From a virus, in IMG/VR virus record IMGVR_UViG_3300019360_000147, positions 1 to 64,000 of that record: a DNA stretch of 64,000 nucleotides; one strand, 5' to 3'. Below, piece after piece: positions 1 to 54,079 of the stretch. The notes beneath the pieces were generated by a model. The model was not told the DNA's origin and ran no database searches. It was given only the letters and a program-made list of their open reading frames with translations. How positions within the stretch are numbered: the stretch's first letter is position 1; each line of letters opens with the position of its first letter. The translations under genes and the position numbers were made by a program.

Positions 1-2
1 AG

Positions 3-671
3 GCCTACGTGAGGCCGGTCTTGGAGGATCTCGCCTCGGGCAAGGGGCGCCTGCTGAAGGTGTCCTTTCTCTTTGAGCGGCCTGGCCGCAAAGTCTTCGC
101 CTTGGTGTGCTACGAGCGAACGCTGATGATCCCGGTGCCAGGAGATCGGGAGGCGACCCTCGGTCCGCTGGAGGTGGATGGGTCGCTGTACCTCCGGGCC
201 ACGCTGGAGAATGGACGGCCCTTCGTGGAAAATTACGCGGAGCGCATCCTGCGCTGGCTCCAGATGAAGCAGCATTTTGCAGGGCTGCACAAGCGCCTGC
301 GACTGCAACGGCGCCAGAGCGGGTCCGGGTGGAGGCAGAGATATCGGCGGGATCTGCTGCGCGTGGGATCGTTCGAGGCCTGGGCGCATGGCAGACTCCA
401 GGAATTGTCGGCCGACGTAGTGGAGACATGCCGGCGCCTCGGGATCGGGAAGCTGGCGGTCGGGCCGATGGAATTCGGCGAGTTGCCCATGGCGAAGCTG
501 ATCGGGATGCTGACCTACAAATGCGAGGAGGCTGGAATCAGCCTGGTCCGGTTCGATCCGGTCCAGCCGACGACGGAGCGGGCTATCGAGGCGCCAATTC
601 GCAAGCGGGGCCGGAAACTCGCCAAGGCCCGGCAAGCCCTCTCGGATCTGCGGGATGTGATCCAGCCGTAA
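3..671 (+). CDS. TnpB/Cas12f-like RNA-guided effector, C-terminal part (5' truncated by window edge), RuvC apparently inactive
   Basis: Frame is open to the window start. LIGMLTYKCEEAGISLVRFDP resembles the TnpB/Cas12f 'LxYKaeeaGi.v..VdP' segment, preceded by an Arg-rich helix region. The expected RuvC-I (GxDlG) reads EATLGP and RuvC-II (vvEdL) reads LAVGPM; there is no Zn finger or RuvC-III. Lies directly upstream of a CRISPR leader and array. Confidence 0.7.
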   Translation, partial: AYVRPVLEDLASGKGRLLKVSFLFERPGRKVFALVCYERTLMIPVPGDREATLGPLEVDGSLYLRATLENGRPFVENYAERILRWLQMKQHFAGLHKRLRLQRRQSGSGWRQRYRRDLLRVGSFEAWAHGRLQELSADVVETCRRLGIGKLAVGPMEFGELPMAKLIGMLTYKCEEAGISLVRFDPVQPTTERAIEAPIRKRGRKLAKARQALSDLRDVIQP

Positions 672-853
672 ATGCCGCGAACCCCGAGAGGCCAGTTCAG
701 GCCCAGGAGATTCGCGGCAGGCGGAGAGGCCACGGAAACCACGAATTACAGAGAGGAGGCGATAGGCAGGCAGGTGGGAGATTGTGTCGGAACGTCCGGT
801 TCGCGGAAAGATGGGTGTGGGGCATCAGAATTCCAGCGATTGCGAGAGGGTGA
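672..853 (+). promoter_or_regulatory. CRISPR leader
   Basis: Non-coding gap between the effector gene and the first repeat. Inverted repeat TGCCGCGAA (673-681)/TTCGCGGCA (711-719) and a further TTCGCGG at 800-806. The repeat-variant polarity of the array fits growth from this end. Confidence 0.65.
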
Positions 854-1381
854 GGCACAATCGAATCCGACACTCAGAGGGGATTGCGAGAGGTGCGCGC
901 ATGACCGAGCGGATCCTCCCGCACGGCACAATCGAATCCGACACTCAGAGGGGATTGCGAGCATGATCCCTTGGCACGGATGTTCCCTCCCCCGCGGCAC
1001 AATCGAATCCGACACTCAGAGGGGATTGCGAGCATGACAAGGATGGAAACAAGCTGTACGCGTTCCAGGCACAATCGAATCCGACACTCAGAGGGGATTG
1101 CGAGCGCACCCCCCTCATCAGGAATCACCTCCCTTCCCGGCACAATCGAATCCGAAACTCAGAGGGGATTGCGAGCGCTACGCGTGGGCATATGGCAATC
1201 GCGTTTCAGGCACAATCGAATCCGAAACTCAGAGGGGATTGCGAGTTGTCGTGGTACAGCGTGTAGCTGGCGATGTTCCCGGCACAATCGAATCCGAAAC
1301 TCAGAGGGGATTGCGAGAGAGCAGGCTGTGAACTAGCCGCTCGGCTTTCGGCACAAGCGAATCCGAAACTCAGAGGGGATT
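854..1381 (+). CRISPR. CRISPR array 1: 8 repeats, 7 spacers (32-35 bp)
   Basis: Repeat GGCACAATCGAATCCGA(C/A)ACTCAGAGGGGATTGCGAG (37 bp) starts at 854, 925, 996, 1068, 1139, 1209 and 1281. A truncated terminal repeat occupies 1350-1381. Confidence 0.98.
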
Positions 1382-1404
1382 TCTGATCAGAAAGGAGAGA
1401 TGAC

Positions 1405-1758
1405 ATGACTGCCCACACATTCGATAGCCGGCTGAAGGAACAGGCGCTGTTGGGGCTGGAGGTGACTGACCGCATCTTGCGCGGCGAGGACGTCTCCAAC
1501 CTCCAGGGCCGGACGGCGATTTCGATCGTCGGCGCGGAGTTGAAGAATCAGAGCAACGAGAATGGCCGGGTGTCCCGAATCATCAGCCTGGCCAAGCTCG
1601 GCGTGACCGATGCTGCCGTGCGGCAAACCATTGCGGAGGCGGCACTGAAGGTATTGCTGCCCAATGTCCAACTGTCTCGGCTTGCCGGGGGCCCGCCCCC
1701 GCCCAAGGCCCTGAAGGGCAAGGCGAAGGGGAAAGTAGCCGAAGCAGGCGCGTCATGA
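1405..1758 (+). CDS. hypothetical protein
   Basis: ORF with an AGGAG SD supplied by the array tail; its stop overlaps the next start. Confidence 0.7.
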   Translation: MTAHTFDSRLKEQALLGLEVTDRILRGEDVSNLQGRTAISIVGAELKNQSNENGRVSRIISLAKLGVTDAAVRQTIAEAALKVLLPNVQLSRLAGGPPPPKALKGKAKGKVAEAGAS

Positions 1759-2168
1759 AACGCATTGGTGGGGGTGTCCTGCTCGTCATGCTCTTGGCGG
1801 GCTGTGCCGCGAATGCCAGTCGGCATGTGATGGCCTACCCAGCACGGGGGCAGAGCCTTGAGCAGCTCGCTCAGGACAAGTACCAGTGCGAGGGATGGGC
1901 GAATCAGGAGGCGGCGGCCGATCCACTGGCGGGGGCTGCAACTGGAGCCATCGGCGGGGGGGTACTCGGAGCCGGAGCCGGGGCAGTCTTAGGAGCGATC
2001 GCTGGAGCGTTTCTCGGGCAAGCCGGAGAGGGCGCAGCCATCGGGGCCGCCCTCGGCGGGGCGACGGGCGGAATGTCCGGGGCGGCGGGAGGAGCCACGT
2101 CGGAACGACAACGCTACCTGAACGCTTACAGCGTCTGCATGGCGGGTCGGGGGTATTCGGTGCGGTAA
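1755..2168 (+). CDS. glycine-zipper lipoprotein
   Basis: Signal peptide with LAGC lipobox, GxxxG glycine-zipper run, and QDKYQC...CMAGRGY cysteine pair. Confidence 0.85.
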   Translation: MKRIGGGVLLVMLLAGCAANASRHVMAYPARGQSLEQLAQDKYQCEGWANQEAAADPLAGAATGAIGGGVLGAGAGAVLGAIAGAFLGQAGEGAAIGAALGGATGGMSGAAGGATSERQRYLNAYSVCMAGRGYSVR

Positions 2169-2189
2169 GGCTAAGGAGGGAGGGGGAAG

Positions 2190-2417
2190 ATGCCGAAGAT
2201 TGAATCTCTTGAGCCCGCGTGGAAGCCAAGGCGGTACTGGATGGTGCATTGCCCGGAGGGACTTCCACCGAAGAAGATGCACGAGACGGGTACGGATGCC
2301 CACGAGGAAGCGATCCGACTGGCTGAGAAAGAACCCGGCAAGGTCTTTAGCGTGCTGGAAGTCATTGAAAGTTACTGGCAACGGCCACAAGTGCAATCCG
2401 TGAACTGGCGGGAATGA
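2190..2417 (+). CDS. small hypothetical phage protein
   Basis: Strong SD (AAGGAGG region) upstream; 75 aa. Confidence 0.6.
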   Translation: MPKIESLEPAWKPRRYWMVHCPEGLPPKKMHETGTDAHEEAIRLAEKEPGKVFSVLEVIESYWQRPQVQSVNWRE

Positions 2418-2489
2418 AGCGCGAAGAGGCGATTGCGATATTCCGCAAACTGTATCTCCAGAGATTGGAGGAGGCCGGTTCGGCTTGGA

Positions 2490-3602
2490 ATGGCGAGACC
2501 TAAGGTTCTGCTGATCTCTCCTCTGAGAGGAGCGGTCTCAGGGATCGAATCGGCGACGAGGATGATCCTCGACAGCCCGTTGGTGATCCACTGGGAGATC
2601 AGCCATCTCGATGCCTGGACCTCGCGGGCGAACCGTGAACGGGGCTGGCTGAGCTGGGGGAGCCTGCGGCGGTTCACGAAACTACTGTGGGTCGTGCGAC
2701 AGGCCGTGCGGGAAGTCAAGCCGCAGGTGGCGTGGATTCCGATGGCGAGCAATCGCCTGGGCTTCCTCAAGTTCGCGATGCTGGCAACGGTGGTCGGTGT
2801 CCCCGTGATCGGGAAGTATGGGGGGGACGCCTTCGCCACTTTCTACGCAACGCAGGCTGGTCCGGTGCGGGATCTGATCCGCACCGTCCTTCGCCGCTGC
2901 GCTGCGGTTCTCGTCGAAGCCGAATGTCTGATGCCCCAGTTCTACAGCCTCGTCCCCAGTTACAATGTTCGCTGGGCCCACCTCGGCCTCGACCCCGGCG
3001 CGTCTCCGCTCCAGCACCGGTCTCGACCCGCCAGGAATGTCCTCTTCATCGGCCACATCTCCCGGGCCAAGGGGGCCGTTGATTTGCTCGCCGCCATGCC
3101 TGCCGTCAGCAAAGCCATCCCCGGAGCCCGGCTTGTTCTCCTGGGGGAACACCTGCGGCGGGAGCGGAGCCTCGTGCATCTCCACGACCGGGACGCCGGC
3201 TGGCAGGCGGTCAAAGCGAGACCCGCGAACGTGGAAGCCCCTGGGATCCTGACCGGTCCGGCGAAGCGGCATGCGCTGGCGGAGGCGGATGTGTTCTGTC
3301 TGCCGTCGGCGTCGGAGGGGTTCCCTGTGGCGGTGTTGGAAGCGATGGCGGCGGGACTTCCGCTCGTGACCACGACTGCGGGAGCCATGGGCGAGGTCCT
3401 GAAGGACGGGGTGAATGTTCGCTTCGTGCCGTATGGAAACCCTGGGCGACTCGCCGAGGTGCTGAGCGACCTGCTGTCGCACGCGGGACGGTATGCCCGA
3501 CAGCGAATGGCAGCAGAGAATCGGCGGGCGGTGGAGGAAAGGTTCACGCTGGAATGCTTTGCGGAGGGAGTCCGGAAGGCCCTCGCGGATGTCGTGCGAT
3601 GA
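2490..3602 (+). CDS. GT4 family glycosyltransferase
   Basis: ADVFCLPSASEGFPVAVLEAMAAGLP (ExFxxxxxE motif) and FIGHISRAKG. Confidence 0.92.
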   Translation: MARPKVLLISPLRGAVSGIESATRMILDSPLVIHWEISHLDAWTSRANRERGWLSWGSLRRFTKLLWVVRQAVREVKPQVAWIPMASNRLGFLKFAMLATVVGVPVIGKYGGDAFATFYATQAGPVRDLIRTVLRRCAAVLVEAECLMPQFYSLVPSYNVRWAHLGLDPGASPLQHRSRPARNVLFIGHISRAKGAVDLLAAMPAVSKAIPGARLVLLGEHLRRERSLVHLHDRDAGWQAVKARPANVEAPGILTGPAKRHALAEADVFCLPSASEGFPVAVLEAMAAGLPLVTTTAGAMGEVLKDGVNVRFVPYGNPGRLAEVLSDLLSHAGRYARQRMAAENRRAVEERFTLECFAEGVRKALADVVR

Positions 3603-4297
3603 TTGCCTGGGTGCTTGGCGTCCCGATCTCGCGGCTCTCTGTGGATTCGACGCTCGGGTGTCTGACTGGATGGGTACGGGAGATGACGAGTCCCTGCGTC
3701 GTGAATCTCGTGAACGCCCACTCGGTCGTCGAGGCGCACAGGAACTCGGAACACATGCGGGCACTTCGCTGGTCACACATCAACCTCGCCGACGGCTGGC
3801 CGGTTGCTCGCATGGCCCGGGCGCCACGGATCGCAGGGGCTGATCTGATGCTCGCGGTCGCCCGGCATCCGGACCTGGGAAAGATGCGGCATGTGTTGCT
3901 GGGGGGATTCGGGGTGGCGTACACGGCGGCGATGCGGCAGTGCGTAGACGCGGCAGGGCACAGTCCGCTGAATCTGCGGTCGCCGGCTATTCCAGCCGCG
4001 GCTCCCGAGAGCAGCCTCCTCGAAATGGCGAACGGCCAACAGTGCGACATCCTCTGGGTCTCCCTCGGGTGCCCCAAGCAGGAAATCTGGATGCACGAGA
4101 ACCGGGACAAGCTGAAGGCCAAGGTCGTCATCGGCGTGGGGGCGGCATTCGATTTCCTCGCGGGGCGGGTTCGACGAGCTCCGGTCTGGGTGCAGCGGAT
4201 CGGACTGGAGTGGGCGTGGAGGATCTGGGCAGACCCGCAGCGGTGGCGTCGGCAGATCAGTGCCGTGATTGGGTTCGCCCGGTTGCTGCTTCGGTAG
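3599..4297 (+). CDS. WecB/TagA/CpsF family glycosyltransferase
   Basis: LVNAH, ADGWPV, RIAGADL, LGCPKQE, GVGAAFDFLAGRVRRAP, GLEW motifs. Confidence 0.95.
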   Translation: MIAWVLGVPISRLSVDSTLGCLTGWVREMTSPCVVNLVNAHSVVEAHRNSEHMRALRWSHINLADGWPVARMARAPRIAGADLMLAVARHPDLGKMRHVLLGGFGVAYTAAMRQCVDAAGHSPLNLRSPAIPAAAPESSLLEMANGQQCDILWVSLGCPKQEIWMHENRDKLKAKVVIGVGAAFDFLAGRVRRAPVWVQRIGLEWAWRIWADPQRWRRQISAVIGFARLLLR

Positions 4298-4903
4298 ATG
4301 GGCTGGCGCGTGTTCGACATCGTCGCCGGTCTGGTCGGCCTGATCATCTTCGCCCCGATCATCGCCCTGTGCGCGATCGCGACCGTGCTGGATTCCGGAC
4401 TGCCGCCGTTCAACGGGTCATGGAGGCTGGGGAAACATGGCACGCCCTTTCGGTGTTGGAAAATCCGGACGCTGAGGAATGACCACGAAGCCGTTCTTGC
4501 CAGACATCTTGCGACGTGCCCAGAAGCGCAGAAAGAGTGGGAGAGGTACGCGAAACTCAGTCACGATCCCCGTGTCACGCGAATCGGCGGATTCTTCCGC
4601 ACAACATCTCTCGACGAGATGCCGCAACTGTGGAATATCCTCCAAGGGAAGATGGCCGTCTTCGGCCCGCGGCCTTTCCTCTGTCGAGAGAGGACCCTGC
4701 TTGGAGTGTGGGCAGATGATTTGGCTGCGGTGCTCCCCGGCGTCATCTCCTACTACACCGCCCACGGCCGGAGCCGATTGCCCGTGGAACGGCGAATCAG
4801 GCTCGATGCGAAATTCGCGAGGCGGATGGCAAAGCCGGGCGTGAAGTGGCACGCACTGGTGCGGACGGTGAGGCGGTTGATCGACCGAAAGGGAGCCGTG
4901 TAA
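4298..4903 (+). CDS. initiating polyprenyl-phosphate sugar transferase (Bac_transf, WcaJ/PglC-like)
   Basis: R.FDI plus a hydrophobic helix; [37 protein letters not shown]. Confidence 0.93.
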
Positions 4904-5202
4904 TGGAGACCCCGCTCGATTTCTATGCCGACGGGTTCCAAGTGATCACGACGGCGTACGGGTGCAGCCTGAGCTTGGTGCGATCGTTGCCCGGGCCGCC
5001 CCGAATGGGCAAGACGCAAGAGGGCGAGGTGCTGGCCATCGCCCGCATGAGCCTGGAGCACCTGAAGTTGCTGATCTTTACCCTGCATCGGCAGCTCAGT
5101 CAGCACGAGCGGGAGCACGGGGTCGCGGTGGATGTGCCGCAGACCGCGCTGAACGGGATGCAGATCGGGCGGGAGGATTGGGAGAAGTTCTGGAGGGGAT
5201 GA
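4903..5202 (+). CDS. hypothetical protein (DUF3467-like)
   Basis: FYADGFQV...RMSLEHLKLL pattern; translationally coupled. Confidence 0.55.
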   Translation: METPLDFYADGFQVITTAYGCSLSLVRSLPGPPRMGKTQEGEVLAIARMSLEHLKLLIFTLHRQLSQHEREHGVAVDVPQTALNGMQIGREDWEKFWRG

Positions 5203-6134
5203 TGCGCGTGTTGTTGCTCATTGACAAGGCCGACTGGTCCTACCAGCAAATTGCCGAGGCTCTCGTTAAGCAGAATACGGATCGGAGTCTGGAATTGGAA
5301 ATCCTTGCCCTGAAAGGCCACACCAGATTGTTCCGATCAAAATATCTGGAGTATGATCGGACGCTTATATTCGGGCATCAGTTGCTGTCTATGATTCCCC
5401 CCCTTACCCGGTTCGTTATGAACGACGGGGATTGCCTCATTGGAATCCATAGTCATCATTCGTGGGATCCAGATCTCCGCACTACACCGGATGAAGATAT
5501 CGAGCCCCCAAGTCAACTCATCAGCACATTGAGAGGCTTTCGTGCCGTCAACTGCGTCTCGCAGCGGCTGTTCAATTTGTTCGCCGGTAGGGGACTCAAT
5601 CTATATCTCACCCCAAACGGCGTTGACTGCGACCGCTTCAAGCCGACGCAGCCGCTTTCGACCGAGGGACCACTGCGAGTTGGTGTGGCCTATACGCCGA
5701 AGCATGACAAACGCAAGGGGGTGGAGGAGTTCATTCGGCCCGCCTGTGAGAAGGTCGGGGCAATCCTCGTCGAGGCGAAGGCCCGGAGCGAGCAGCATGT
5801 GCGGCCGGAGGATATGCCCGCGTGGCACAATTCCTACGACGTGTATGTATGTGCATCCAGCTCGGAGGGATTTTCACTCGCGGTCCTCGAGGCCGCAGCC
5901 TGCGGGCGCCCGGTGATCTCGACGCGGGTGGGAGGGAGTACCGAGTTGATGAGACGCGTACATGATGGGTGTCTCGTAGACAGAACGTCCGATGCGATCG
6001 CAGAAGCACTCGTCCTATACCGAGATGATCGAATTCGGCTCGCCATGGATGGACTGAGCATACGAAGGCTTGTAGAGGAAGATTGGTCCTGGAAGCGGCG
6101 AGCAGTGGCATGGTTGGACTTCATGAGGAGCTAG
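5199..6134 (+). CDS. GT4 family glycosyltransferase
   Basis: TPNGVD; DVYVCASSSEGFSLAVLEAAACGRPVISTRVGG. Confidence 0.9.
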   Translation: MMRVLLLIDKADWSYQQIAEALVKQNTDRSLELEILALKGHTRLFRSKYLEYDRTLIFGHQLLSMIPPLTRFVMNDGDCLIGIHSHHSWDPDLRTTPDEDIEPPSQLISTLRGFRAVNCVSQRLFNLFAGRGLNLYLTPNGVDCDRFKPTQPLSTEGPLRVGVAYTPKHDKRKGVEEFIRPACEKVGAILVEAKARSEQHVRPEDMPAWHNSYDVYVCASSSEGFSLAVLEAAACGRPVISTRVGGSTELMRRVHDGCLVDRTSDAIAEALVLYRDDRIRLAMDGLSIRRLVEEDWSWKRRAVAWLDFMRS

Positions 6135-6138
6135 GATT

Positions 6139-6327
6139 ATGGAGGCCTGCAAGATTTGCGTGGAGCCGTGTACGGCCTGCGGGATGGATCCGCATGATCC
6201 CCGGTGTGGGATCTGCGGGATGCTGCACCAAGAGCCTGTGAGCCACGCCGGGGTGGCGTATTCGACCTGTGTGCGGTGTGGGAGGAGAGTATCGTCGCAG
6301 CGGCTGTTGACGTCCTCCCCGGACTGA
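6139..6327 (+). CDS. small Cys-rich protein, possibly truncated
   Basis: Four CxxC pairs; terminates inside the IS-end-like flank of array 2. Confidence 0.45.
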   Translation: MEACKICVEPCTACGMDPHDPRCGICGMLHQEPVSHAGVAYSTCVRCGRRVSSQRLLTSSPD

Positions 6328-6341
6328 AGTCCGGGGCGTCC
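6307..6341 (-). mobile_element. IS200/IS605 right-end-like hairpin (copy 1)
   Basis: Minus strand GGACGCCCCGGACTTCAGTCCGGGGAGGACGTCAA: a subterminal hairpin ending in TCAA. Identical to 10489-10523. Confidence 0.7.
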
Positions 6342-6362
6342 GCGCCCATGGAGAATCTGTGC

Positions 6363-6464
6363 GGCACAAGCGAATCCGAAACTCAGAGGGGATTGCGAGG
6401 CGCACGACCTCCGACTACATCCGCAAGCTCGCGGCACAATCGAACCCGAAGCTCAGAGGGGATT
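6363..6464 (+). CRISPR. satellite mini-array 2: 2 repeats, 1 spacer
   Basis: Repeats at 6363-6399 and 6433-6464 (truncated). Spacer GCGCACGACCTCCGACTACATCCGCAAGCTCGC. Confidence 0.93.
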
Positions 6465-6482
6465 TCTGATCAGAAAGGAGAG

Positions 6483-6514
6483 GTCAACTACCCCGCGCTA
6501 AAGTGCGGGGTCTC
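6483..6514. mobile_element. second IS200/IS605-type end remnant
   Basis: GTCAACTACCCCGCGCTAAAGTGCGGGGTCTC: a GTCAACTACCCC hairpin typical of IscB/TnpB-associated element ends. Confidence 0.6.
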
Positions 6515-6535
6515 TTGGCCGACTTTTTAGGAACT

Positions 6536-7180
6536 ATGAATCGACTCTGGTTTGACCTCGCCTTTCGCCGACGCGTGCGGGGGGAGATTCGGCGCTTGGG
6601 CCCGTGGTACCAACAGATTCAACTGCTGCCTGGCCTCTTTACCCGCCCGTGGAATCAGGCGACGATTGGGGAGTTGATTCACGCGGAACGGGGCGGACCG
6701 AAATTCCGAAGATTCCTGCTCCCAATGATCAAGCCGTATCTGCACGGGGGGACGGTTTTTGAGCTCGGCTGCAATGGCGCACAAATGCTCGTCTGCTGCC
6801 TGCGGCACGGAGCGGCCGAGGCATGGGGCGTCGAACCGGATGAGCGGTATCGCAAACAGGCCTGCCTAGTTCGGCAGTGCTTGGGCCTGCAACGACAATT
6901 GACGATCAGCAACCGGCCTCCGCTTGGTAAGAGTGTCGACATCGGTCTCATGTGTGCTGTTCTCCGGCATGTCGATCCCCTGGAGAGGGTGGGCGTGCTG
7001 CAGTCGATGGGTGAGTTCTGCAAGCGAGTGCTCATCAACGGCAATGGCTTATCGGACGCACCAGACGGGGATAGCATTGACTCGATTCTGCGGGATGTGC
7101 ACCGAACGAATCTGGTCGTTGAGGAGTTGCGATCCGAGCCGCATGTCCGCGGGCTGCGGATTCTGCTGAAGTCCCGATGA
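6536..7180 (+). CDS. class I SAM-dependent methyltransferase (CmoB/DUF1698-like)
   Basis: PWYQQIQL; VFELGCNGA...GVEPD SAM-binding motifs. Confidence 0.8.
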   Translation: MNRLWFDLAFRRRVRGEIRRLGPWYQQIQLLPGLFTRPWNQATIGELIHAERGGPKFRRFLLPMIKPYLHGGTVFELGCNGAQMLVCCLRHGAAEAWGVEPDERYRKQACLVRQCLGLQRQLTISNRPPLGKSVDIGLMCAVLRHVDPLERVGVLQSMGEFCKRVLINGNGLSDAPDGDSIDSILRDVHRTNLVVEELRSEPHVRGLRILLKSR

Positions 7181-7869
7181 TTCGTGAGATGCCCCTGGAG
7201 CGGCTGCTCAGCAAGGCGTTTCTGCGGCCGTGGCAGTTGAGTGAGTGTCACGCGGCACAATTGATCCTCGCTGGCCACACCGGCCTCGGCGGGACCCGGT
7301 TCGCCCACTTGCGGCTCGGTCTCCTGACGTGGGAGTCGCCTCACTGTGGGGAACTGCCGAAGGGCCTCGATGCCCCACTGCAGTACTGGGTGACTCCATG
7401 GCAGAGCAAGTTCCGTCGGCCGCTCAGCGTGGTGCAACGCGTCGAGCGGCGCCTGCGGTTCCGTCGGACGGTCTCCGACTTCCGCAAGTTGGTCCGCGTC
7501 ATGGACTGGAAGGGGTGGGTGGGGCCAGCGGTGCCGGGGATACTGCTGGTCGGCGGGGGATGGAAGGAAGTGGCAGGACCGAGGCAGGGCGATCCTGATC
7601 TTGTGCCGGAGTCGGCTGGCCGAGAGATTCCATTCAATCGGGATTCCTCCAGCGAATTATTTCTCCATACGGATGGCAACCGGAGAATTGGCATCGCAGC
7701 CGCAGTCGGAATTTTGAGAGTGCCGGTCAAGATCACCCCCCTGCTTACATTCGACTGGCAGGGGACGAGGGCGGCAGGGACGGGGCGATTCAGTGAGGGG
7801 GATACGCGGCGGATCTGGGAGCATGTGTGGGAACGCGTACTCCCCGACTATCGCAGGTCGGCACCATGA
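7177..7869 (+). CDS. ParB/Srx-fold-like protein
   Basis: HTDGNRRIGIAAAVGILRVPV resembles the DGxHR...GxxxVPV motif. Confidence 0.55.
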   Translation: MIREMPLERLLSKAFLRPWQLSECHAAQLILAGHTGLGGTRFAHLRLGLLTWESPHCGELPKGLDAPLQYWVTPWQSKFRRPLSVVQRVERRLRFRRTVSDFRKLVRVMDWKGWVGPAVPGILLVGGGWKEVAGPRQGDPDLVPESAGREIPFNRDSSSELFLHTDGNRRIGIAAAVGILRVPVKITPLLTFDWQGTRAAGTGRFSEGDTRRIWEHVWERVLPDYRRSAP

Positions 7870-8630
7870 AGCTGACTGTGCGGCAGAAGATCGTGCGCAG
7901 ACTGGCCCGGATCAAGACACGGATGGCATATCAGTGGGAACGACCGACGCATTGTTGGTGCGGCGGGGAATTGTTCAGGGATATGAACAGCCTCGACCCA
8001 TCCGTATCGGCCTGTTCGGTATGCTGGACGCGGGCACTGCGCCACAGACTTACCGAAGCATCGTATGCTCGCTGGTACGCGAGCGGGGACTACCGGCGGT
8101 ATGTAATGGGAACGAGCGGCGTGGCCATCGGACAGGTGATGAAGGAAATACGTCGGGCGGCCGCTGCCGTAAAGTTCCTCGGTGATCACGGGGTCGCCAT
8201 TCGCGGCACTTGGGTTCTCGATGTCGGATCCGGTGCTGGCGGTTGGTTGCTCGTGGCGAAACTTTTCGGTGCATGTCGGGTGGTGGGCGTGGATGTCGAT
8301 GATCGTTCACGGGCGGTTCCGTCTGAGTTCGGTCTCTCGGTACTCAAGGCCAGGCCTCAGGACGGTTTGTGGGACCGGATAATCTGTAGTCACATCATAG
8401 AGCACATCATACACCCGGTGGAATTCTTGAAGGACGTGCGTTCGGTCCTCGGCAGGAACGGGTGCCTCTACATCGAAACGCCAGCGTGGGGGCCGAAGGC
8501 GGAAGTGAAATTGCCGCATCCGTTTTACTACAGCCCCGACTCGTTGCGGCTCTTGGCGACGCGGGCGGGATTGGAAGTGGTGGCCATGACGGATGGAATT
8601 CAGGCGGTGCTGCGGAGGCTGAGCAGCTAA
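7866..8630 (+). CDS. class I SAM-dependent methyltransferase
   Basis: VLDVGSGAG, VGVDVD, HIIEHIIHP, LYIETP. Confidence 0.9.
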   Translation: MKLTVRQKIVRRLARIKTRMAYQWERPTHCWCGGELFRDMNSLDPSVSACSVCWTRALRHRLTEASYARWYASGDYRRYVMGTSGVAIGQVMKEIRRAAAAVKFLGDHGVAIRGTWVLDVGSGAGGWLLVAKLFGACRVVGVDVDDRSRAVPSEFGLSVLKARPQDGLWDRIICSHIIEHIIHPVEFLKDVRSVLGRNGCLYIETPAWGPKAEVKLPHPFYYSPDSLRLLATRAGLEVVAMTDGIQAVLRRLSS

Positions 8631-8639
8631 CAGACAGTA

Positions 8640-9608
8640 ATGAAGAGAATTTGCTATCTGACAGATTCATTGTCGTGGATCCAAGCCCAGCGGGCCAAGG
8701 ACCTCCAGCCGTATCTTCCGGAGTACGCACTCATCCCGATGCTCCCGACTGATGCCCTTCGATACGCCCCGATCATCTTGGCCTATTACGACGCGGTATG
8801 GTTCGCCTCTTGGCGAATCATACTGGCAGAACCGAGGCTCATGGACGCATTGAATCTGTCTGCCTGCATGGCATCCGTGACCAGCCACTACCACATCGGC
8901 GGTGGCCTCAAGCCGGAGACGTGCTTTCGGAAGGGGACTGATCCCGACCAGGAATTCACCAAGGCCATCGAGGTGCTGACACGCTTCCGGCTCGTCACAT
9001 GCAACTCGAAGATTCTGTACGACCTCCTTTCGCCCCATCTGCCGGAGCTCGTGCTGGCGCAGAATGGGGTCGATGCGGAGTTCTTTCACCCATCAGCCGA
9101 GGGGCATCACTGGTTCGACAGACGTGTCATCTTCCCCTCCGTTGGCTGGGTGGGGAAGGACAAGGGGGCCAAGAATCTGGCGATATTCATGGAGGCGTAC
9201 CGGAAAATCGACGGGCCCTGGCCCCTGTTTCCCATGGTCGTTCCCAAGAAGCGGGGCGGGCCAGTGAAGACGCGGGGGGGGATGCGGAACTTCTACTGGC
9301 AGACGGATTTCCTCGCCTGTACGAGCTGGCACGAAGGCACGCCGAATCCGGCGCTGGAGGCTGCGGCATGTGGTCTACCAATTATCACCACAAGGGTAGG
9401 CAACATGCCAGAGTTCGTGACCGAAGGCGGTACCGGCTGGTTTATCGAACCGACAGCCGAGAGCCTGATCGCCTGCATAGAGCGGTTGAAGGAGATCACG
9501 CCTGAACAATACCGCCGCATGTCTCAGGCCATTCGGACCGAGATCGAAATGCACTGGACCTGGTCGAAGCGGGCCGTGGCGTATCGGAAGGCACTGGAGA
9601 CGCTATGA
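8640..9608 (+). CDS. GT4 family glycosyltransferase
   Basis: QNGVD; TSWHEGTPNPALEAAACGLPIITTRVG. Confidence 0.9.
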   Translation: MKRICYLTDSLSWIQAQRAKDLQPYLPEYALIPMLPTDALRYAPIILAYYDAVWFASWRIILAEPRLMDALNLSACMASVTSHYHIGGGLKPETCFRKGTDPDQEFTKAIEVLTRFRLVTCNSKILYDLLSPHLPELVLAQNGVDAEFFHPSAEGHHWFDRRVIFPSVGWVGKDKGAKNLAIFMEAYRKIDGPWPLFPMVVPKKRGGPVKTRGGMRNFYWQTDFLACTSWHEGTPNPALEAAACGLPIITTRVGNMPEFVTEGGTGWFIEPTAESLIACIERLKEITPEQYRRMSQAIRTEIEMHWTWSKRAVAYRKALETL

Positions 9609-10432
9609 TCCCCCCCCAGAACGTCTCCGAGGCCGTCTACCGCCGGGAGGTGGCGAAGCGGATCGGCCTATGTCGGCGGATCATCGCAGAGGACTGGATG
9701 CGTTTCCGTCCACTGATTCGGCTTGTCGTGCTGAGTTGCAAGCGCCCCAAGGAATTGGCGAGGCTCATGGATGGCTTGGTGCATATGCCATCGAACGAGC
9801 CGAAGATCTTTGCAACCCTGCTGGTTGATAACGGCTCAGGCGAAGCAGTGAGGCGCATCGCCGAGTCCTACGGATTCTTTGGTGATATGATCCTGCATGA
9901 GGCGAATATTGGTATGGGGGCGGCGCTCAATGGCGCACTCAGCAGTTTCCCGGCTGAGTTCATTCTCTTCATCGAGGACGATTTGGTTCTGGAGCGTCCG
10001 GGATTCCTGAGGGGCTGCTTGGACATCTTTCGCGAGTTCCAAGAGATCGGCCTCATCAAGCTCAAGCGCAAGGACGCCTGGGACGAGAAGCCCTACCGGC
10101 GCATCGGCCCCATGCAAACCACGACCACGGGCGTTCGGTTCCATCCGTGGCTGCCGTCCCCCCGGGGGTCCTTCCGGTGGGGCCAGCGCCCGTGGTATCC
10201 AGTCGGAGTGCACAACGTATGGAGCCTCGGACCGGTGATGTTCCGCTGGTGTGCGTGGAAAGAGGCCGGACCGATCCAGACTGGGCAGGGCAGGGGACAG
10301 GCCGTGGCGGCGGAGGAGGTGTACGCCCGCACATTCAATCAGCGGTGGCTGGCGGCGAGACCTGTTGATATTCAGCCGTTCTCGCAACCGGAGACGTTAG
10401 AGAGTCCGGGGTTCAGGGATGAGATCGCATAG
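9605..10432 (+). CDS. GT2 family glycosyltransferase
   Basis: VLSCKRP, LVDNGS, ILFIEDD. Confidence 0.85.
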   Translation: MIPPQNVSEAVYRREVAKRIGLCRRIIAEDWMRFRPLIRLVVLSCKRPKELARLMDGLVHMPSNEPKIFATLLVDNGSGEAVRRIAESYGFFGDMILHEANIGMGAALNGALSSFPAEFILFIEDDLVLERPGFLRGCLDIFREFQEIGLIKLKRKDAWDEKPYRRIGPMQTTTTGVRFHPWLPSPRGSFRWGQRPWYPVGVHNVWSLGPVMFRWCAWKEAGPIQTGQGRGQAVAAEEVYARTFNQRWLAARPVDIQPFSQPETLESPGFRDEIA

Positions 10433-10488
10433 GGCCAAGCGCATGGCGCAGAGCGGCGAATCTGCGGTGGCGGTAGAGAAGATAGAGA

Positions 10489-10523
10489 TTGACGTCCTCC
10501 CCGGACTGAAGTCCGGGGCGTCC
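10489..10523 (-). mobile_element. IS200/IS605 right-end-like hairpin (copy 2)
   Basis: Identical to 6307-6341; identity between the copies begins exactly at TTGAC. Confidence 0.7.
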
Positions 10524-10544
10524 GCGCCCATGGAGAATCTGTGC

Positions 10545-10719
10545 GGCACAATCGAGTCCGAAACTCAGAGGGGATTGCGAGCCAACCGGACCGTCTGCCC
10601 AGCCCCGCACGATCGGGCACAATCGAATCCGAAACTCAGAGGGGATTGCGAGTTGACGTAGCGTGAGAGGTTCCCAACCAGGGTTGTGGCACAATCGAAT
10701 CCGAAACTCAGAGGGGATT
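10545..10719 (+). CRISPR. satellite mini-array 3: 3 repeats, 2 spacers
   Basis: Repeats at 10545, 10616 and 10688 (truncated). Spacers of 34 and 35 bp. Confidence 0.95.
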
Positions 10720-10752
10720 TCTGATCAGAAAGGAGAGAGGAGACGAACCGCG

Positions 10753-11532
10753 ATGCGTCCTGACATCACGATCTGCATCCTCTCTGCCGTCGAGCCGCCG
10801 TTGCCAGAATGCGTGGAGGCAGTCCGAAAGATCCTGGCCTCGGACTCACGGATCGGAGGGATCATCTCCGTCACGGATGTATTCCCGATGTCAGCGGCCT
10901 TCAACGCGATGATCGAGCGGTGCCCGTCCCGCTTCATCGTCCAAGTGGACGGGGATGTGGTCCTCGAACCGTGGGCGGTTGAGCGGCTGTACAATTTCAT
11001 CCACTGGACACCACTGGTGTACATGGCCTGGGGGCAGTTGTGGGAATCCTATGACGACGGCCTGCGGGCCGGTGGATCGGTACGGATCTGGCGCAGATGG
11101 CCCGTGAAACTGTTCCGGTTTCGCGACGAGCGGTGCGTGGATCGGGGACTGCATTCGCGGATCAGACTGACGGGGATGCGTCGGGTCCAGGTCGAGGCGG
11201 GGTGGAAGTTTGGGACACACTACCCGCGGCAAACTCCCTTTGCCATATTCAGTAAGTCCCGTGGCGATGCGATGAAGTGGCGGGTGCTCGGCCGGAGCGA
11301 TCTGATCAGGGCCCACCACACGCAGTTCCCGCCTGGGCTGTCTCTCGACGCCCTGGGCCGCCTGTCGGGATTGCAGGCGCCGCAGGATGAGGTGTGGCGG
11401 TCGAAGGATGCTCGGAAGGACTGGCACGAATTCCTGCGGATCGGAGGGCGGTATGCGGGCAGTCAAGGCCAAGCGGCTGCGCAAGCAGGTGTACGGCGAT
11501 TTCAGTCAGCGGGAGCGAAAATATTACCGTGA
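10753..11532 (+). CDS. GT-A/GT2-like glycosyltransferase
   Basis: DITICIL; AFNAMIERC..FIVQVDGDVVL (DxD motif). Confidence 0.75.
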   Translation: MRPDITICILSAVEPPLPECVEAVRKILASDSRIGGIISVTDVFPMSAAFNAMIERCPSRFIVQVDGDVVLEPWAVERLYNFIHWTPLVYMAWGQLWESYDDGLRAGGSVRIWRRWPVKLFRFRDERCVDRGLHSRIRLTGMRRVQVEAGWKFGTHYPRQTPFAIFSKSRGDAMKWRVLGRSDLIRAHHTQFPPGLSLDALGRLSGLQAPQDEVWRSKDARKDWHEFLRIGGRYAGSQGQAAAQAGVRRFQSAGAKILP

Positions 11533-11596
11533 GGTCGGCGGGGTCATCCGCAACATGGGGAGGCGGGCGGAGTATCAGGAGCTGAAGCGGCGGTGA
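11453..11596 (+). CDS. small basic hypothetical protein
   Basis: SD GGAGG upstream; MRAVKAKRLRK; coupled to the next GTG. Confidence 0.45.
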   Translation: MRAVKAKRLRKQVYGDFSQRERKYYREVGGVIRNMGRRAEYQELKRR

Positions 11597-12693
11597 GAAT
11601 CCTGTTTTCGGCGAGCCATCTTTTGCACTGGAGACCTCTGATTCCCGTGGCAATCGAACTCTCCCACCGCGGCCACCAGATCACGGTGCAGACGACACGG
11701 CCCAACTGGCTGGGGATGCCCACGTACCAGATGGACTGGCGGCCGACGAACGTCACGGGGATCAACAAGGCGAGTCTGGCGTGGCTGGCGGGGAAGATCG
11801 GGTACGGGGAGGAGTGGCAGGCGGTGCAGGATTGGATCGTTTATGAGCGATGGTTTGTCCCTGAGGAGCAGGACGCAGCCGTAGCGACGACGAAGGACAT
11901 GCGCTTCCTGCGGGACATGGGTTTGCGGATCAATGGCTACATGACAACCTACGCCGTGGGCTACCAGCACTTCCCGGCCGTGATCACAGTCGGGGACTCT
12001 GCGTGGACAGACAAATTGCTCAGCGTCAACCCACCTCCACTGATGCCCGAGGCGTTCACCGAAACCCACCCTTTCGGTGCTGCACACGGGTTCGGCGGCC
12101 TTCCGCTAAGCGATCGGGTCACTCCCTGCGGCTTCCCGCATCTTGACAAGGTTCGGATAGATTGTGGGTCACGAATGAACGCCGTTTTGATCCAGCATCC
12201 CGGGGGACACCGAGGCATCGACGGGCACGCCTGGCTAGCGAACATCTGCAAGACGCTCGACTTCGCGGGATTGCGCGTCTATGTCTGCCCGCACTTCATT
12301 CCCGGTCGTGGGTACGATGCTGGCAACCTCGGCACAGCACTGGCCAGCCATGGGGGGCTCCAAGCGCATATGATCCGGAATTGGTGGGAGGTCGCTGGCG
12401 ACTGCGACCTGATACTCACCGCTGGCTCCTCCGCCGCCTACGAGCTGTGGTCGGTCGGGCTGACGAATGTGTTTATCCTTGGGTACGTCGGCGGGAAACG
12501 CCATGAGAAGTTTGGCCTGTTCCAGGACCTGATGATCGAGTCACCGGAGGCACTGCGGAAGCTACTGCGAGGCCTGCCTGGATCTGCCCAAGCGACTGGG
12601 GCACTGACGAAGGACGTCATGGCCGCCTATCGCAGCCTCCACACCGGCCAGGGGGCGAAGACGGCGGCGGATGTGATGGAGGGCAAACGTTGA
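11593..12693 (+). CDS. putative GT-B fold / polysaccharide biosynthesis protein
   Basis: MRILF..HWRPLIPVAIELSHRGH; GFPHLD; DLILTAGSSAAYE. Confidence 0.6.
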   Translation: MRILFSASHLLHWRPLIPVAIELSHRGHQITVQTTRPNWLGMPTYQMDWRPTNVTGINKASLAWLAGKIGYGEEWQAVQDWIVYERWFVPEEQDAAVATTKDMRFLRDMGLRINGYMTTYAVGYQHFPAVITVGDSAWTDKLLSVNPPPLMPEAFTETHPFGAAHGFGGLPLSDRVTPCGFPHLDKVRIDCGSRMNAVLIQHPGGHRGIDGHAWLANICKTLDFAGLRVYVCPHFIPGRGYDAGNLGTALASHGGLQAHMIRNWWEVAGDCDLILTAGSSAAYELWSVGLTNVFILGYVGGKRHEKFGLFQDLMIESPEALRKLLRGLPGSAQATGALTKDVMAAYRSLHTGQGAKTAADVMEGKR

Positions 12694-25241: not shown

Positions 25242-26540
25242 GTTAGTACCCTCGGTGAATCTCGATGAGGATGCCGATGACGAGGATGGACAGGACAGTA
25301 GCGTAGATTTTTGGTCATTTTTGAGGGGCGAGTTACGGTCAAAAAGGGAAAAAGGCCCTCCCGGGAGGGCAGGAGGGCGGCTGGAGAGGGCCGGGGATCA
25401 GGCTGAGCCGGCTCGGGCGTCGGGGGCGAGGAGAAGAAGATCCGACAGAAGGTTGCGAAGCCGCTCGGTCACTGCGGGAGAAAAACATTCTGCTTTCGTG
25501 GTGGTGGAGTCCCGGAAGAGAAAGGCGTACCCGCCTTGGGGGAGAGAGGCTGCGCATCGGAGGGAAGGGATGGAGTCCCAAGAATTCCAGCCGGGGCGGC
25601 CGAGGGGCCTACCCCCCAGGGGGGTGGTCTTTCAGATTCCGACCAGTCGGCCGCGGCTCGGCCGGGCGATCGCCGCCCACATCATCCTGGGCCTGACTGG
25701 CGACCAGGACGGCGACCAGACTTAACGACCCCTCGTAACCTACTATCAACACACGGTCTCCATTACCGTGAATTCGACTGCCTGTCGAATACCACAGATT
25801 GTGCCTCGCGCTGTACATTTTTCAAATCAGAAGGCCAGACTCACAATCCATCTGAGTTTCTGATTCGCCGGAGCTGCCGGCGGATTGAACCCGCACCAGT
25901 CGCACGACAGCACGATTCGACCCACCCCGCTCAACGCCGGTTCCGACGCTATCACCTGAGGCGTGCCGACCCCGTTCAACGCAGCCGCGCATGGCCGCAC
26001 ACTGGCACACACAACTACACCCGCTTCAACCTCTTTCAACGTGGACACCCTGGGGCTTACTTCCACCGGATACTCTTACTCTCTCAGACGTACTTCGAGT
26101 CACTACAATCAAATCGGGTACTGTGTGCTGTATCGAGTACTTGGGACTTCAATCCGTCTCCGAGTACTCTATCCGATAGGTCGTACACTATACGTCCTAC
26201 TACAGAGTACTTCGGACTCGGACGCTAACGCGCGCGCGAGGCTTGCCATTGGCAATGTCTGCGATCCGCGAGGGGGCGACGTATTGGTATACTTTACCGT
26301 ACAAGATTGCACAAATAACTGTGCAAAAGTATTGTCATGTATCCAAAAATATTGTGCACTGTGTTTTCGCTGGCTTGGCGGATCTCCTACAGACAAAGTG
26401 CATGATTTACAGGGCAAGAGACATGGAGCAAAATACTACACGATAGTAATATCAGCCCTTTACGCCCTCAGCACCAATATTGCGCCGACAACGGTGCACT
26501 AATGAACGCCGTAGAAACAGATGACTAAAGAGGGGAAACC

Positions 26541-26867
26541 ATGAAAACCTATTGGAGCAGCTCGGTAGCAGTAAATGGGCAGGTAAAGTGCCCAACCAGG
26601 GATGTGGATCTACCAAGGGCGCTTGGTAAGTCCATCAAAAGTGCCATTTACTATCTGGCCATCTATCCCAATGCAAGCATTACCATTGAAGAGACGAGAG
26701 AGCAGTGCTCGCTGTGCTGGAATGCTGGCACGGTGAAGGCCGGCAAGAACGGCCTCCGCGGAGGCCGTTGCCCAGAATGCAAGGGCAAGGGCGCAACTGG
26801 GAGGGTTGGGTCCATCCCGGTCTGCCTATCAGACGATTCAAAGTTACAGATCATCCAGACGGCATAA
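26541..26867 (+). CDS. hypothetical protein with DnaJ-like Zn finger
   Basis: CSLCWNAG...CPECKGKG; SD GAGGGG upstream. Confidence 0.65.
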   Translation: MKTYWSSSVAVNGQVKCPTRDVDLPRALGKSIKSAIYYLAIYPNASITIEETREQCSLCWNAGTVKAGKNGLRGGRCPECKGKGATGRVGSIPVCLSDDSKLQIIQTA

Positions 26868-26958
26868 CGTCCTAAACCCCAGTCTGTGTCCGGCGGCAGG
26901 ACAATAGAGAAGCGGCATATTGGGATGTGCCACGGACAGCAGAAGGAAGGGGGGAGCC

Positions 26959-27543
26959 ATGTACCGATTAAATACCTCCGAAAAACGATTAGCCGCTCGA
27001 TGGGTGCCGGAGGGCTATACGGTCAGCCTCGAATATCCGAGCGTGAATGCCGTCATTCATGCTGGCCAGACGCCCCGAGGGATCCTCGCGCTTGCCTATC
27101 GCGGGACCGCAAGTCGGCCTTCTTGGCACCTGTCGTTCCGGAGCCCTCAAGCATTCACGGATTACGCAGCCCAGTGGCTATCCAACCTTGAGGCGTGGCA
27201 CGCCCGCAAGGTGGCAGACCGAGCAGAGCGCAAGGTAGGCCACACTCTCAAGGTGGGAAATGTCCTAGTGAGTACCTGGGGATATGACCAGACCAATGTT
27301 GATTTTTACGAAGTCATCGCCGTGCGCGGCAAAGTCGTTGATCTGCAAGAGATCGGGCAACACGCTACTGCCCAACGTGGACCGGCTGGCGATCTTGTGA
27401 TCCCGATACGCGGAGGTCGAGGGAAAATCCTGAAAGGCAAAAGGCCCACGCCAGACAACTACATCCGGATTAACAGTTACTCACACGCCCATCCGTGGAA
27501 TGGGAAGCAGATGTATCAGACAGACCCAATGTTCGGACACTGA
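26959..27543 (+). CDS. conserved phage/plasmid hypothetical protein
   Basis: LKVGNVLVSTWGYDQTNVDFYEV motif; strong SD. Confidence 0.7.
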   Translation: MYRLNTSEKRLAARWVPEGYTVSLEYPSVNAVIHAGQTPRGILALAYRGTASRPSWHLSFRSPQAFTDYAAQWLSNLEAWHARKVADRAERKVGHTLKVGNVLVSTWGYDQTNVDFYEVIAVRGKVVDLQEIGQHATAQRGPAGDLVIPIRGGRGKILKGKRPTPDNYIRINSYSHAHPWNGKQMYQTDPMFGH

Positions 27544-27691
27544 TGAGGCGCAGGGAATCATCTCCATCGGTTCCCAGGCCGGTTCCCGGGACGGGGCCTG
27601 GCGCCCGGAGCAGCCAGGGGACAGGATCGGCCAATGAGCACCCCAGAGACTCCCGCCAGTATCACCATTACCCGGGACTAAGGAGGGCACC

Positions 27692-28405
27692 ATGGCCAAA
27701 TACGACGTCGAGCATAGTTGCGGACACACCAGCGTGCAGCAGCTCTATGGCCCGGGCAAGGACCGCGAGAGCCGGATCGAGTGGCTGAGCGGGCGGCCCT
27801 GCGTGGATTGCTGGAAGGCCGCCAAGCGGGCCGAGGACGCGATCAAGCCCATCCGCGTTACCGCCGCTACCAACGGCCTGGACAAGGATGAGCAGGGCAA
27901 CATCCTGGCCGAGATCTATCTCACGGGCGGGACGGAGCCGCACAAGGACCGCATCAAGGCTTTGGGCTACTCGTGGGGCGAGGTGCGGGGAGGCGTGCTC
28001 AATTTCCTGTCCACAGCCTCCGCGCAGTGGGCGTGGATCAAGCGCCTGCCACTCCTCAGCTTGGGCGAGCGGGCGCCGGCGCTCCTCGCCGAGATCCGGG
28101 CCATCGACCCGCGAGCGGAGGGCCGGGTGGAGATCAATCTCTTGGACATCGAAATGGCCCGCAAGAGTTTGGCGGATCGCGAGGCACGGGTGGCGGCCAA
28201 CCCCAAGCCCGAGCGGCCGCCTTGGTACGCCACGCTGATGGCTGGCCCGGACGCGCGGTGGAATGGCAAGATCTACGGGAAGGAGCAGTACGGCTACCGG
28301 ATCTATATCAGCAACGTCGAGCATCGGATCACCAAGGATCAGGCAGCCGAGCTCACAGCCTACAACGAGGCCCGGCTGGCCCACAAGGCGGCCAAGACCG
28401 CCTGA
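27692..28405 (+). CDS. hypothetical phage protein
   Basis: SD AAGGAGG; MAKYDVEHSCGH...CVDC. Confidence 0.75.
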   Translation: MAKYDVEHSCGHTSVQQLYGPGKDRESRIEWLSGRPCVDCWKAAKRAEDAIKPIRVTAATNGLDKDEQGNILAEIYLTGGTEPHKDRIKALGYSWGEVRGGVLNFLSTASAQWAWIKRLPLLSLGERAPALLAEIRAIDPRAEGRVEINLLDIEMARKSLADREARVAANPKPERPPWYATLMAGPDARWNGKIYGKEQYGYRIYISNVEHRITKDQAAELTAYNEARLAHKAAKTA

Positions 28406-28813: not shown

Positions 28814-29133
28814 CGCCCCGCCTTGTCCGCACAGACTTCGCCGTGAGCGGGCGCTGTGCTCGCTACTGGCTCCGCAGCGCCGCCGGCTCCGAGGCCGCCA
28901 TAGCCGTGGCGGAGGATGGCACCGTGGCCGGGCTGGATTTAGCGGCCGCCATACGAGACACAGGCTATGGCCCTTGGACCGTGATTCGCCGCGACGGTCA
29001 GGCCGTCCGGTATCTCGGTGTTATTGACCGCAGCGTCATCAGCCAGTCGGGGGCACGGCTCTGCGACCTGGACCGACCGCACGGGATGCGGTTTCAACTG
29101 CTGGGCCAGGTCGTGCCAACCAGGGAGGCGTGA
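28810..29133 (+). CDS. hypothetical protein
   Basis: ATGA overlap with the upstream gene. Confidence 0.55.
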   Translation: MTPRLVRTDFAVSGRCARYWLRSAAGSEAAIAVAEDGTVAGLDLAAAIRDTGYGPWTVIRRDGQAVRYLGVIDRSVISQSGARLCDLDRPHGMRFQLLGQVVPTREA

Positions 29134-29134
29134 C

Positions 29135-50283: not shown

Positions 50284-50342
50284 GTTAACTCCATGAGAAT
50301 AAAGTCGTTCCAGGGGTTAATTCTGACTTGAAGGAGGAGGAC

Positions 50343-51102: not shown

Positions 51103-51333
51103 ATGGGATACATGCCAGACTTTGAAGGCGAGGAGGCCAAGACCCTGAAGGAGGGGGACGGCGGGATCGTCGGTCCCGCCGGCCAGAAGGTGAAAAGTGC
51201 TGCCGCACCGGGCACGGAGCAGATCGCAGCCTGGGGCGGGTTTAGGGGTGGCGAGGAGTTGGTCGACCAGACCGAACCTCAGGCCCTGTCCACCAAAGAG
51301 ACGGGAGCCCAAGGGGACGAGGCTGGGTCCTAG
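51103..51333 (+). CDS. small acidic hypothetical protein
   Basis: SD GGAGGAG. Confidence 0.6.
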   Translation: MGYMPDFEGEEAKTLKEGDGGIVGPAGQKVKSAAAPGTEQIAAWGGFRGGEELVDQTEPQALSTKETGAQGDEAGS

Positions 51334-51382
51334 CCCAGTCAGAGCGCGCGGCAATGGGTGCCGGGCACACAAAGGAGAGACG

Positions 51383-52303: not shown

Positions 52304-52324
52304 AACGGGCAGTACGGTCAACTC

Positions 52325-54035: not shown

Positions 54036-54079
54036 CGCACAGTGCACAGCGCAGAGGGCAAAACAAAGGAGGGGACTCC

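Follow-up and report, generated by a model that had tools for sequence, protein, structure and literature searches.

The locus described here raises the question why a phage should carry, in a CRISPR array of its own, a spacer that matches one of its own late genes at all but one position. The window, i.e. the whole stretch of DNA that was analysed, comprises bases 1-64000 of a single linear viral record of 73,725 bp that is rated complete by CheckV (its features are collected in Table 1). The original prediction had offered two explanations for the match, namely that the array targets close relatives, in a competition between phages in which a mismatch in the seed protects the carrier, or that a non-cutting effector regulates the phage's own late operon.

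Table 1. Features of the phage record discussed in the text (positions are those of the window)
Feature	Position	Strand	Description
Effector gene, 3' part	3-671	+	222 codons; nuclease-dead Cas12f-like (predicted); truncated by contig start
Leader-like region	672-853	+	between effector gene and array 1; end part aligns loosely with the pre-array segments of L001 and L011
CRISPR array 1	854-1386	+	8 repeats of 37 nt, 7 unique spacers of 32-35 nt; last repeat degenerate
Spacer 3, near-self guide	1033-1067	+	within array 1
Small helical partner ORF	1405-1758	+	conserved with the effector family; after array 1
56-nt block and mini-array 2	6307-6469	+	array part 6363-6469; 2 repeats, 1 spacer
56-nt block and mini-array 3	10489-10724	+	array part 10545-10724; 3 repeats, 2 spacers
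Tyrosine integrase gene	29018-30172	+	PF00589 at 1.6e-16 and 2.8e-14
Major capsid protein gene	49291-50283	+	Pfam Phage_capsid_3 3e-38; phrog_334 3e-54
Target gene	50328-51047	+	conserved late protein, 239 residues; directly after capsid gene
Protospacer-like site	50886-50920	+	mismatch 50888; 5' flank AAAGGG at 50880-50885; 3' flank CCTC
P22-like portal gene	same record		match 2e-77

The near-self spacer, its array and its target

Direct comparison confirmed that spacer 3 is identical to the protospacer-like site at 34 of 35 positions, and this site is its sole copy in the window. The borders of identity coincide with those of the repeats, with none beyond the spacer on either side. Spacer and site differ at position 3 of the former, where a T stands in place of the C of the target. 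This base is the third one in a His codon (CAT versus CAC), and, as predicted, the change is silent: both versions encode HDKDGNKLYAFH. In 100 dinucleotide shuffles no match with up to 3 mismatches arose, and the analytic chance expectation for at least 34 of 35 identities, taken over ten spacers and both strands, is ~1e-12. The site covers codons 187-198 of the 239-codon ORF and is thus intragenic. Since it starts on a codon border, a silent change is possible only at positions 3, 6, 9 and so on, and of these position 3 is the one nearest to the presumed PAM. The odds that one neutral change hits positions 1-6 (of 35) are ~17%, and those for position 3 or earlier ~9%. The target retains the preferred codon CAC (GC3 0.84; in the morphogenesis region, 15 sampled ORFs contain 81 CAC against 51 CAT). 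Most Cas12f nucleases go with a T-rich 5' flank (PAM); the flanks of the site here are those originally read, and the one on the 5' side is not T-rich.

The near-self relation is confined to this one spacer. With up to 8-9 mismatches allowed, neither the other nine array spacers nor the spacer of a solitary repeat unit described below matched the 73.7-kb record, and seed-only scans as well as translated scans with shuffled controls yielded no further self-related spacer in that record. When the 36 spacers from eight arrays of the family were compared with 216 kb of related DNA only spacer 3 matched, and three related phage records contained no self-match. A cross-match between a spacer of locus L017 and locus L018 was discarded as homologous trailing sequence. 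The original prediction had also called for a search for perfect protospacers in viral metagenomes. None with the CAT allele was found across IMG/VR, JGI metagenome contigs, INPHARED and PLSDB; likewise, an exact protospacer scan with Y at position 3 returned nothing from IMG/VR or the JGI contigs, and the first 22 nt returned nothing from IMG/VR.

Array 1 has the make-up of a CRISPR array (at least three near-identical repeats of 23-55 nt, with unique spacers of similar length), and a Cas12f-fold gene ends 182 nt upstream of it on the same strand. Mini-arrays 2 and 3 share its repeat, which brings the total to ten spacers in three arrays, and all three finish in one and the same degenerate repeat (...GGGGATTTCTGA; regions 1350-1400, 6433-6483 and 10688-10738). 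Each degenerate terminal repeat is followed by TCAGAAAGGAGAG, which holds a palindrome (TTTCTGATCAGAAA) and a ribosome-binding site, and an ATG lies within ~20 nt downstream of arrays 1 and 3. An identical block of 56 nt precedes both mini-arrays (6307-6362 and 10489-10544), beginning with TTGACG and containing a GC-rich hairpin; there is none before array 1. At repeat position 18 the first four repeats of array 1 have a C, and its last four, as well as the repeats of arrays 2 and 3, have an A. Because the first four repeats carry the C variant, spacers 1-3 are assigned to a leader-proximal block, which suggests that they were added after the repeat variant arose. Five of the seven spacers of array 1 end in TTCC[AC], TTTCA or CTTTC.

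The co-orientation of array and effector gene, the degenerate distal repeats and the conserved 3' end of the repeat beside the spacer indicate a leader at the end that faces the effector gene and argue for transcription in the plus direction; in all eight loci that have an array, it is co-oriented with the effector gene. This orientation also agrees with the neighbouring genes, all of which are encoded on the plus strand. With the arrays probably transcribed in this direction, guide 3 would have the sense sequence and base-pair to the template strand at the target, with a presumed PAM-proximal seed that starts at guide position 1. The leader-like region contained no significant anti-repeat duplex (shuffle p ~0.10; the region upstream of the effector gene is not part of the contig) and no excess folding (z ~0), no Rfam family was found in 1-12000, which includes this region, and consensus scans gave no promoter-like or terminator-like site near array 1. 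Searches with the repeat and with the first 24 nt of spacers 1 and 2 each gave 0 matches in IMG/VR, and blastn with array 1 matched nothing in INPHARED or PLSDB.

The target gene indeed lies just after the major capsid gene, as had been proposed, and it does so too in a distant relative (L010). Its product has no Pfam or PHROG match. We found 16 relatives of 35-89% identity, and no recorded protein is more than 90% identical; the closest of them (P0012, 89%) has the same peptide across the spacer-3 site. Two motifs are invariant in the family, C-x3-H and CPEH (RCP-x2-H ... CPEHAA), and judged by these residues alone the Cys and His look like a metal-binding site. The AF2 model of the protein is poor (pLDDT 61), the ESM Atlas held no usable match to it, and no relatives were found in GTDB genome contigs. 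Directly downstream of the gene follows a block (51197-54463) in which ORFs of 368 and 181 aa accompany a Wzy_C O-antigen-ligase-like gene. This block has no counterpart at the same place in L010, where there is only ~1.4 kb with small ORFs (7512-8922). Consensus scans of the plus strand found no promoter-like or terminator-like site near the target, nor any between the target and the next gene.

That the match ties the left and right halves of the window to one phage, as originally suggested, is supported by the three arrays, the co-oriented genes and the base composition. The three arrays, which share one repeat, are found at 0.85, 6.4 and 10.5 kb amid co-oriented genes, and the plus strand carries nearly every long ORF of the window. 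The GC content is about even (0.56-0.69), only three 2-kb intervals lack a positive GC skew and the cumulative skew climbs across the window. Moreover, other viral contigs carry homologous effector-array modules beside terminase and portal genes. The contig has no terminal repeats and its start falls within the effector gene, which leaves some room for an artefact, i.e. a match by chance or a host array fused to a phage contig through misassembly. Chance is opposed by the expectation given above, and a misassembled host array, which the original prediction had named as the outcome that would undo it, is rejected because three arrays interleave with co-oriented phage genes within one phage record that CheckV rates complete; we therefore give an artefact next to no credence.

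The integrase gene marks the phage as temperate on sequence grounds. Immediately upstream of it, at 26000-28000, the GC content dips to 0.56, and this low-GC stretch may be the attachment and lysogeny region. The solitary unit referred to above (25790-25867, minus strand) also sits in a lower-GC region; it consists of the 3' part of a degenerate repeat, an AT-rich spacer of 34 nt (25806-25839) with no other match in the record, and the first 9 nt of a repeat. The 73.7-kb record contains no cas1, and it contains no sigma-70-type gene in the form of a Sigma70_r2 match, nor was such a gene found among the neighbours in locus L001. Beyond the window, at contig positions 69494-70594 on the minus strand, lies an IS605-type TnpB with a zinc finger and RuvC motifs that look intact (motifs LGVDFG, LALEDL, CPACG...CQSCG and LADWVAAE), and its similarity to the effector is only distant (E 2.7e-5).

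A Cas12f-like effector without a RuvC active site

The truncated ORF at the start of the window shares 47-53% identity with eight full-length relatives (407-453 aa) over their C-terminal halves, and an exhaustive profile search for the family gave 127 clusters at 50% identity. A profile built from 46 members matched AsCas12f (E ~1e-15), SpCas12f1 (1.7e-16) and the natural dCas12f 9n9c (1.6e-9). The AlphaFold (AF2) model of one relative (P0003, pLDDT 88) had 8j3r, 8j12, 9i8y and 9n9c as its top Foldseek matches (E ~1e-15). Profile and Foldseek thus agree on a Cas12f/TnpB fold with its WED-REC-RuvC core. No relative of the subfamily was found in GTDB genome contigs.

The catalytic Asp-Glu-Asp triad is absent from this fold. 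In the HMM alignment the RuvC-I Asp of AsCas12f is aligned with Leu in the window motif ATLGPLE, and the RuvC-II Glu with Gly in the window motif LAVGPME. Among the 46 aligned members the RuvC-I column holds L, I, N or V, with neither Asp nor Glu among the residues listed, and the RuvC-II column holds A, L, V, G or I, with the Glu retained in three. Both the RuvC-III segment and the zinc finger (TNB domain) are missing from all 46, their place being taken by a short basic C-terminal helix, and the C-terminal tail of 16-66 residues is free of Cys in 45 of them; the protein of the window likewise ends in a basic tail that has no Cys. PF07282 aligns over no more than its initial 29 profile positions, which is below the cut-off. 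The family is therefore predicted to be nuclease-dead, or nearly so throughout, and with the RuvC active site lost any effect of a guide must come from binding and not from cutting. The premise of a non-cutting effector, on which the second of the original explanations was built, is in this way provided with a concrete basis, i.e. a Cas12f fold that lacks the RuvC active site.

Relatives of the effector occur in phage contigs, and in seven of the 11 other loci a same-strand array follows the gene. This holds for each of the three IMG/VR viral contigs with homologues (repeats of 36-37 nt) and for four of the eight metagenome loci; among the remaining four, one breaks off just behind the gene and three have no array within the available sequence. 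In L001 the module lies upstream of DNA methylases, the small and large terminase subunits and the portal. A small partner ORF (~100-130 aa) is found between effector gene and array in L001 (3252-3569), L011 (1713-2024), L012 (1083-1421) and L016 (2047-2448), and directly 3' of the effector gene in L013 (754-1053) and L014 (716-1054), where no array was seen. The ORF has no match in Pfam or among PDB sequences. A likeness to a 'sigma-70 family' cluster was dismissed, as the Atlas feature matches (0.90-0.91) were at noise level.

Against whom the guide may be directed

The reading that we prefer, at somewhat less than an even chance, is that spacer 3 is a guide against near-identical sibling phages and that the phage itself is spared by the seed mismatch. 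The spacer would then supply a guide to a CRISPR system that is carried by the phage and has a Cas12f-type effector which binds but does not cut, and it would derive from the phage's own lineage, i.e. from a near-identical sibling or an ancestor; since the match extends over 34 of 35 positions, the donor must have been almost identical to the phage. As a roadblock to replication or transcription, the effector would bind and block this late gene in incoming siblings that have the CAT allele, such as relatives that superinfect a lysogen and whose immunity region is not that of the resident. Because the resident's own copy is mismatched to the guide at position 3, the initiation of an R-loop on self would be weakened, and as the resident late genes would be silent in the lysogen they should not complement the blocked gene. 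Exclusion exerted by a lysogen is plausible because an integrase is present. What favours self-sparing in particular is that the sole mismatch occupies the silent site nearest to the PAM, as expected if binding to self had been selected against. A recent acquisition would be expected under this reading, and the location of spacers 1-3 in the leader-proximal block with the newer repeat variant fits. Related phages with the target gene do exist (up to 89% protein identity), and these sequences lend the sibling reading some support.

Several observations nevertheless speak against a guide that is directed at siblings. The database searches recovered neither the perfect protospacer nor a target protein of more than 90% identity, the 5' flank of the site deviates from a T-rich PAM, and the contig contains only part of the effector gene. 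The resident copy could complement the silenced structural gene during a mixed lytic infection, and binding may survive a single seed mismatch. In addition, relatives are not the general target of the array, because the other nine spacers resemble the phage family neither in DNA nor in protein. Both the binding-only interference and the siblings with a CAT allele are what we infer from the combination of match and effector.

Part of the same evidence can be accounted for without any selected function. The phage's own DNA might have been the source of the spacer, with the Cas1-Cas2 of a lysogenic host as one conceivable means of capture; the spacer would then have persisted since a non-cutting effector brings no autoimmunity, with the one difference being a later neutral mutation. 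The inability of the effector to cut, the lack of cas1 in the record, a donor sibling that is unsampled in IMG/VR, JGI metagenome contigs and protein records, and the status of spacer 3 as the only near-self spacer among 36 of the family all agree with such a tolerated copy. Because the target keeps its preferred codon, a C-to-T change in the unconstrained spacer gives a simple account of the mismatch. A neutral change, however, would only rarely have landed as close to the PAM as this one did (see the odds above), and since an R-loop bound within an essential late operon would not be free of cost some selection is to be expected. We consider a functionless copy rather unlikely, and place it behind a guide against siblings.

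The second of the original explanations, in which the dead Cas12f and guide 3 purposely bind the phage's own late operon, shares the non-cutting effector and has further points in its favour. The guide would pair with the template strand within a plus-strand operon, an orientation that suits a roadblock, and no terminator-like site separates the target from the next gene, so that binding might act as a partial roadblock that limits downstream read-through; alternatively, it might provide an RNA-guided transcription start as in dCas12f-sigmaE. Directly downstream is the block with the Wzy_C ligase that is absent from this place in L010. Natural dCas12f and TldR proteins are regulators (PMC13472631), and the site has a G just 5' of it, which is the TAM used by one published dCas12f homologue (PMC13472631). 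Even so, a guide devoted to regulation should match in its seed, and it is there that guide 3 has its sole mismatch; the site lies far inside the coding region and away from a promoter, and the record has no sigma factor gene. Furthermore, not even the seeds of the other guides match the phage, and the three related records have no self-match. Deliberate self-regulation is accordingly improbable in our view, and the specific version in which the phage tunes its own genes, with guide 3 gating transcription into 51197-54463 (a secreted protein and the O-antigen-ligase-like gene), is slightly more doubtful still; it would have to involve binding despite the seed mismatch or modulated by it, through a roadblock or an RNA-guided start site and possibly with the small partner protein. 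Between the two original explanations, then, the data lean to phage competition with a protective seed mismatch, and the other retains its non-cutting premise; neither is proven.

Related systems and what the guide would mean

The closest precedent for a guide against siblings is found in the mini-CRISPR arrays of other viruses (Medvedeva et al. 2019, PMC6858448; the phage mini-arrays therein are from Faure et al.), the spacers of which match close relatives while the orthologous locus of the carrier has point mutations or deletions, and for which a role in heterotypic superinfection exclusion has been proposed (PMC6858448). As in those cases, the array here is located on a viral genome, as evident from portal, capsid and integrase, the spacer fits a gene of the carrier's own lineage, and the carrier's locus is mutated with respect to the spacer (position 3), where a point mutation is expected to prevent self-targeting. 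The arrays of Medvedeva et al. come without a cas gene and use cutting nucleases of the host, whereas the phage described here brings its own nuclease-dead effector; moreover, the targeted sibling was not observed in our case. Judging from these sequences, the new elements with respect to virus-borne arrays against siblings would be that the virus supplies the effector itself and that this effector does not cut.

With respect to the effector, the nearest relations are with natural dCas12f, for which the TAM-proximal seed matters most (PMC13472631), and of which an array-linked cluster is mentioned by Hoffmann et al., Nature 2026, Extended Data Fig. 1 (PMC13472631; PDB 9n9c). The systems have the Cas12f fold, the loss of the RuvC site and the presence of guides or arrays in common, and by analogy RNA-guided binding with a TAM-proximal seed would be expected here as well. 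By features alone, i.e. a dead RuvC site with a CRISPR array nearby, the locus corresponds to the array-linked cluster. It differs from the sigmaE-coupled systems in having neither an adjacent ECF sigma factor gene nor a single scaffold-guide RNA: the phage system has no sigmaE gene, is phage-borne and has multi-spacer arrays in place of single scaffold guides. Because the family profile is nearer to AsCas12f (~1e-15) than to 9n9c (1.6e-9), the inactivation may have occurred independently.

A model for exclusion without cutting is provided by Cas12m (type V-M, PMC11013384), a type V effector that only binds and yet, as a roadblock in the path of transcription or replication, protects against both plasmids and phages (PMC11013384). 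Cas12m belongs to another Cas12 branch, though, as Foldseek ranks it far below Cas12f, and it retains a RuvC domain for crRNA processing. TldR proteins (10.1101/2023.11.30.569447; PMC13622181) resemble the effector in being small TnpB-lineage proteins that have lost RuvC residues and have a truncated C-terminus; some are encoded by prophages, and they repress via RNA-guided binding. They do so, however, with one promoter-directed omega-RNA-like guide and without an array, unlike the ten spacers, three arrays and intragenic site found here. Cas12r of the Thermus Lalka phages (10.64898/2026.04.20.719267) similarly combines a compact phage type V effector with an array and no adaptation module, and its spacers serve conflicts between mobile elements (10.64898/2026.04.20.719267). 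Interference by Cas12r is consistent with cutting, whereas the active site of the effector described here is gone. Taken together, these analogies suggest that the phage system functions most like the array-linked dCas12f cluster and the Cas12m roadblocks, and like neither the sigmaE-coupled dCas12f nor TldR.

The family would in any case add to the compact programmable DNA binders a protein of ~420 residues with multi-guide arrays, as predicted from its sequences, and the pair of CAC and CAT targets offers a simple test of whether a seed mismatch protects against a binding-only effector. If the guide were to regulate the phage's own late or cargo genes, this would be the first self-regulation circuit in a phage that is based on a CRISPR array. 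To our knowledge, virus-borne spacers against sibling viruses are known only for cutting systems. If, as we prefer, the dead Cas12f mediates the exclusion of siblings, it would represent a natural form of CRISPRi for virus-virus exclusion, in which a single silent base in the seed would make up the entire difference between self and rival.
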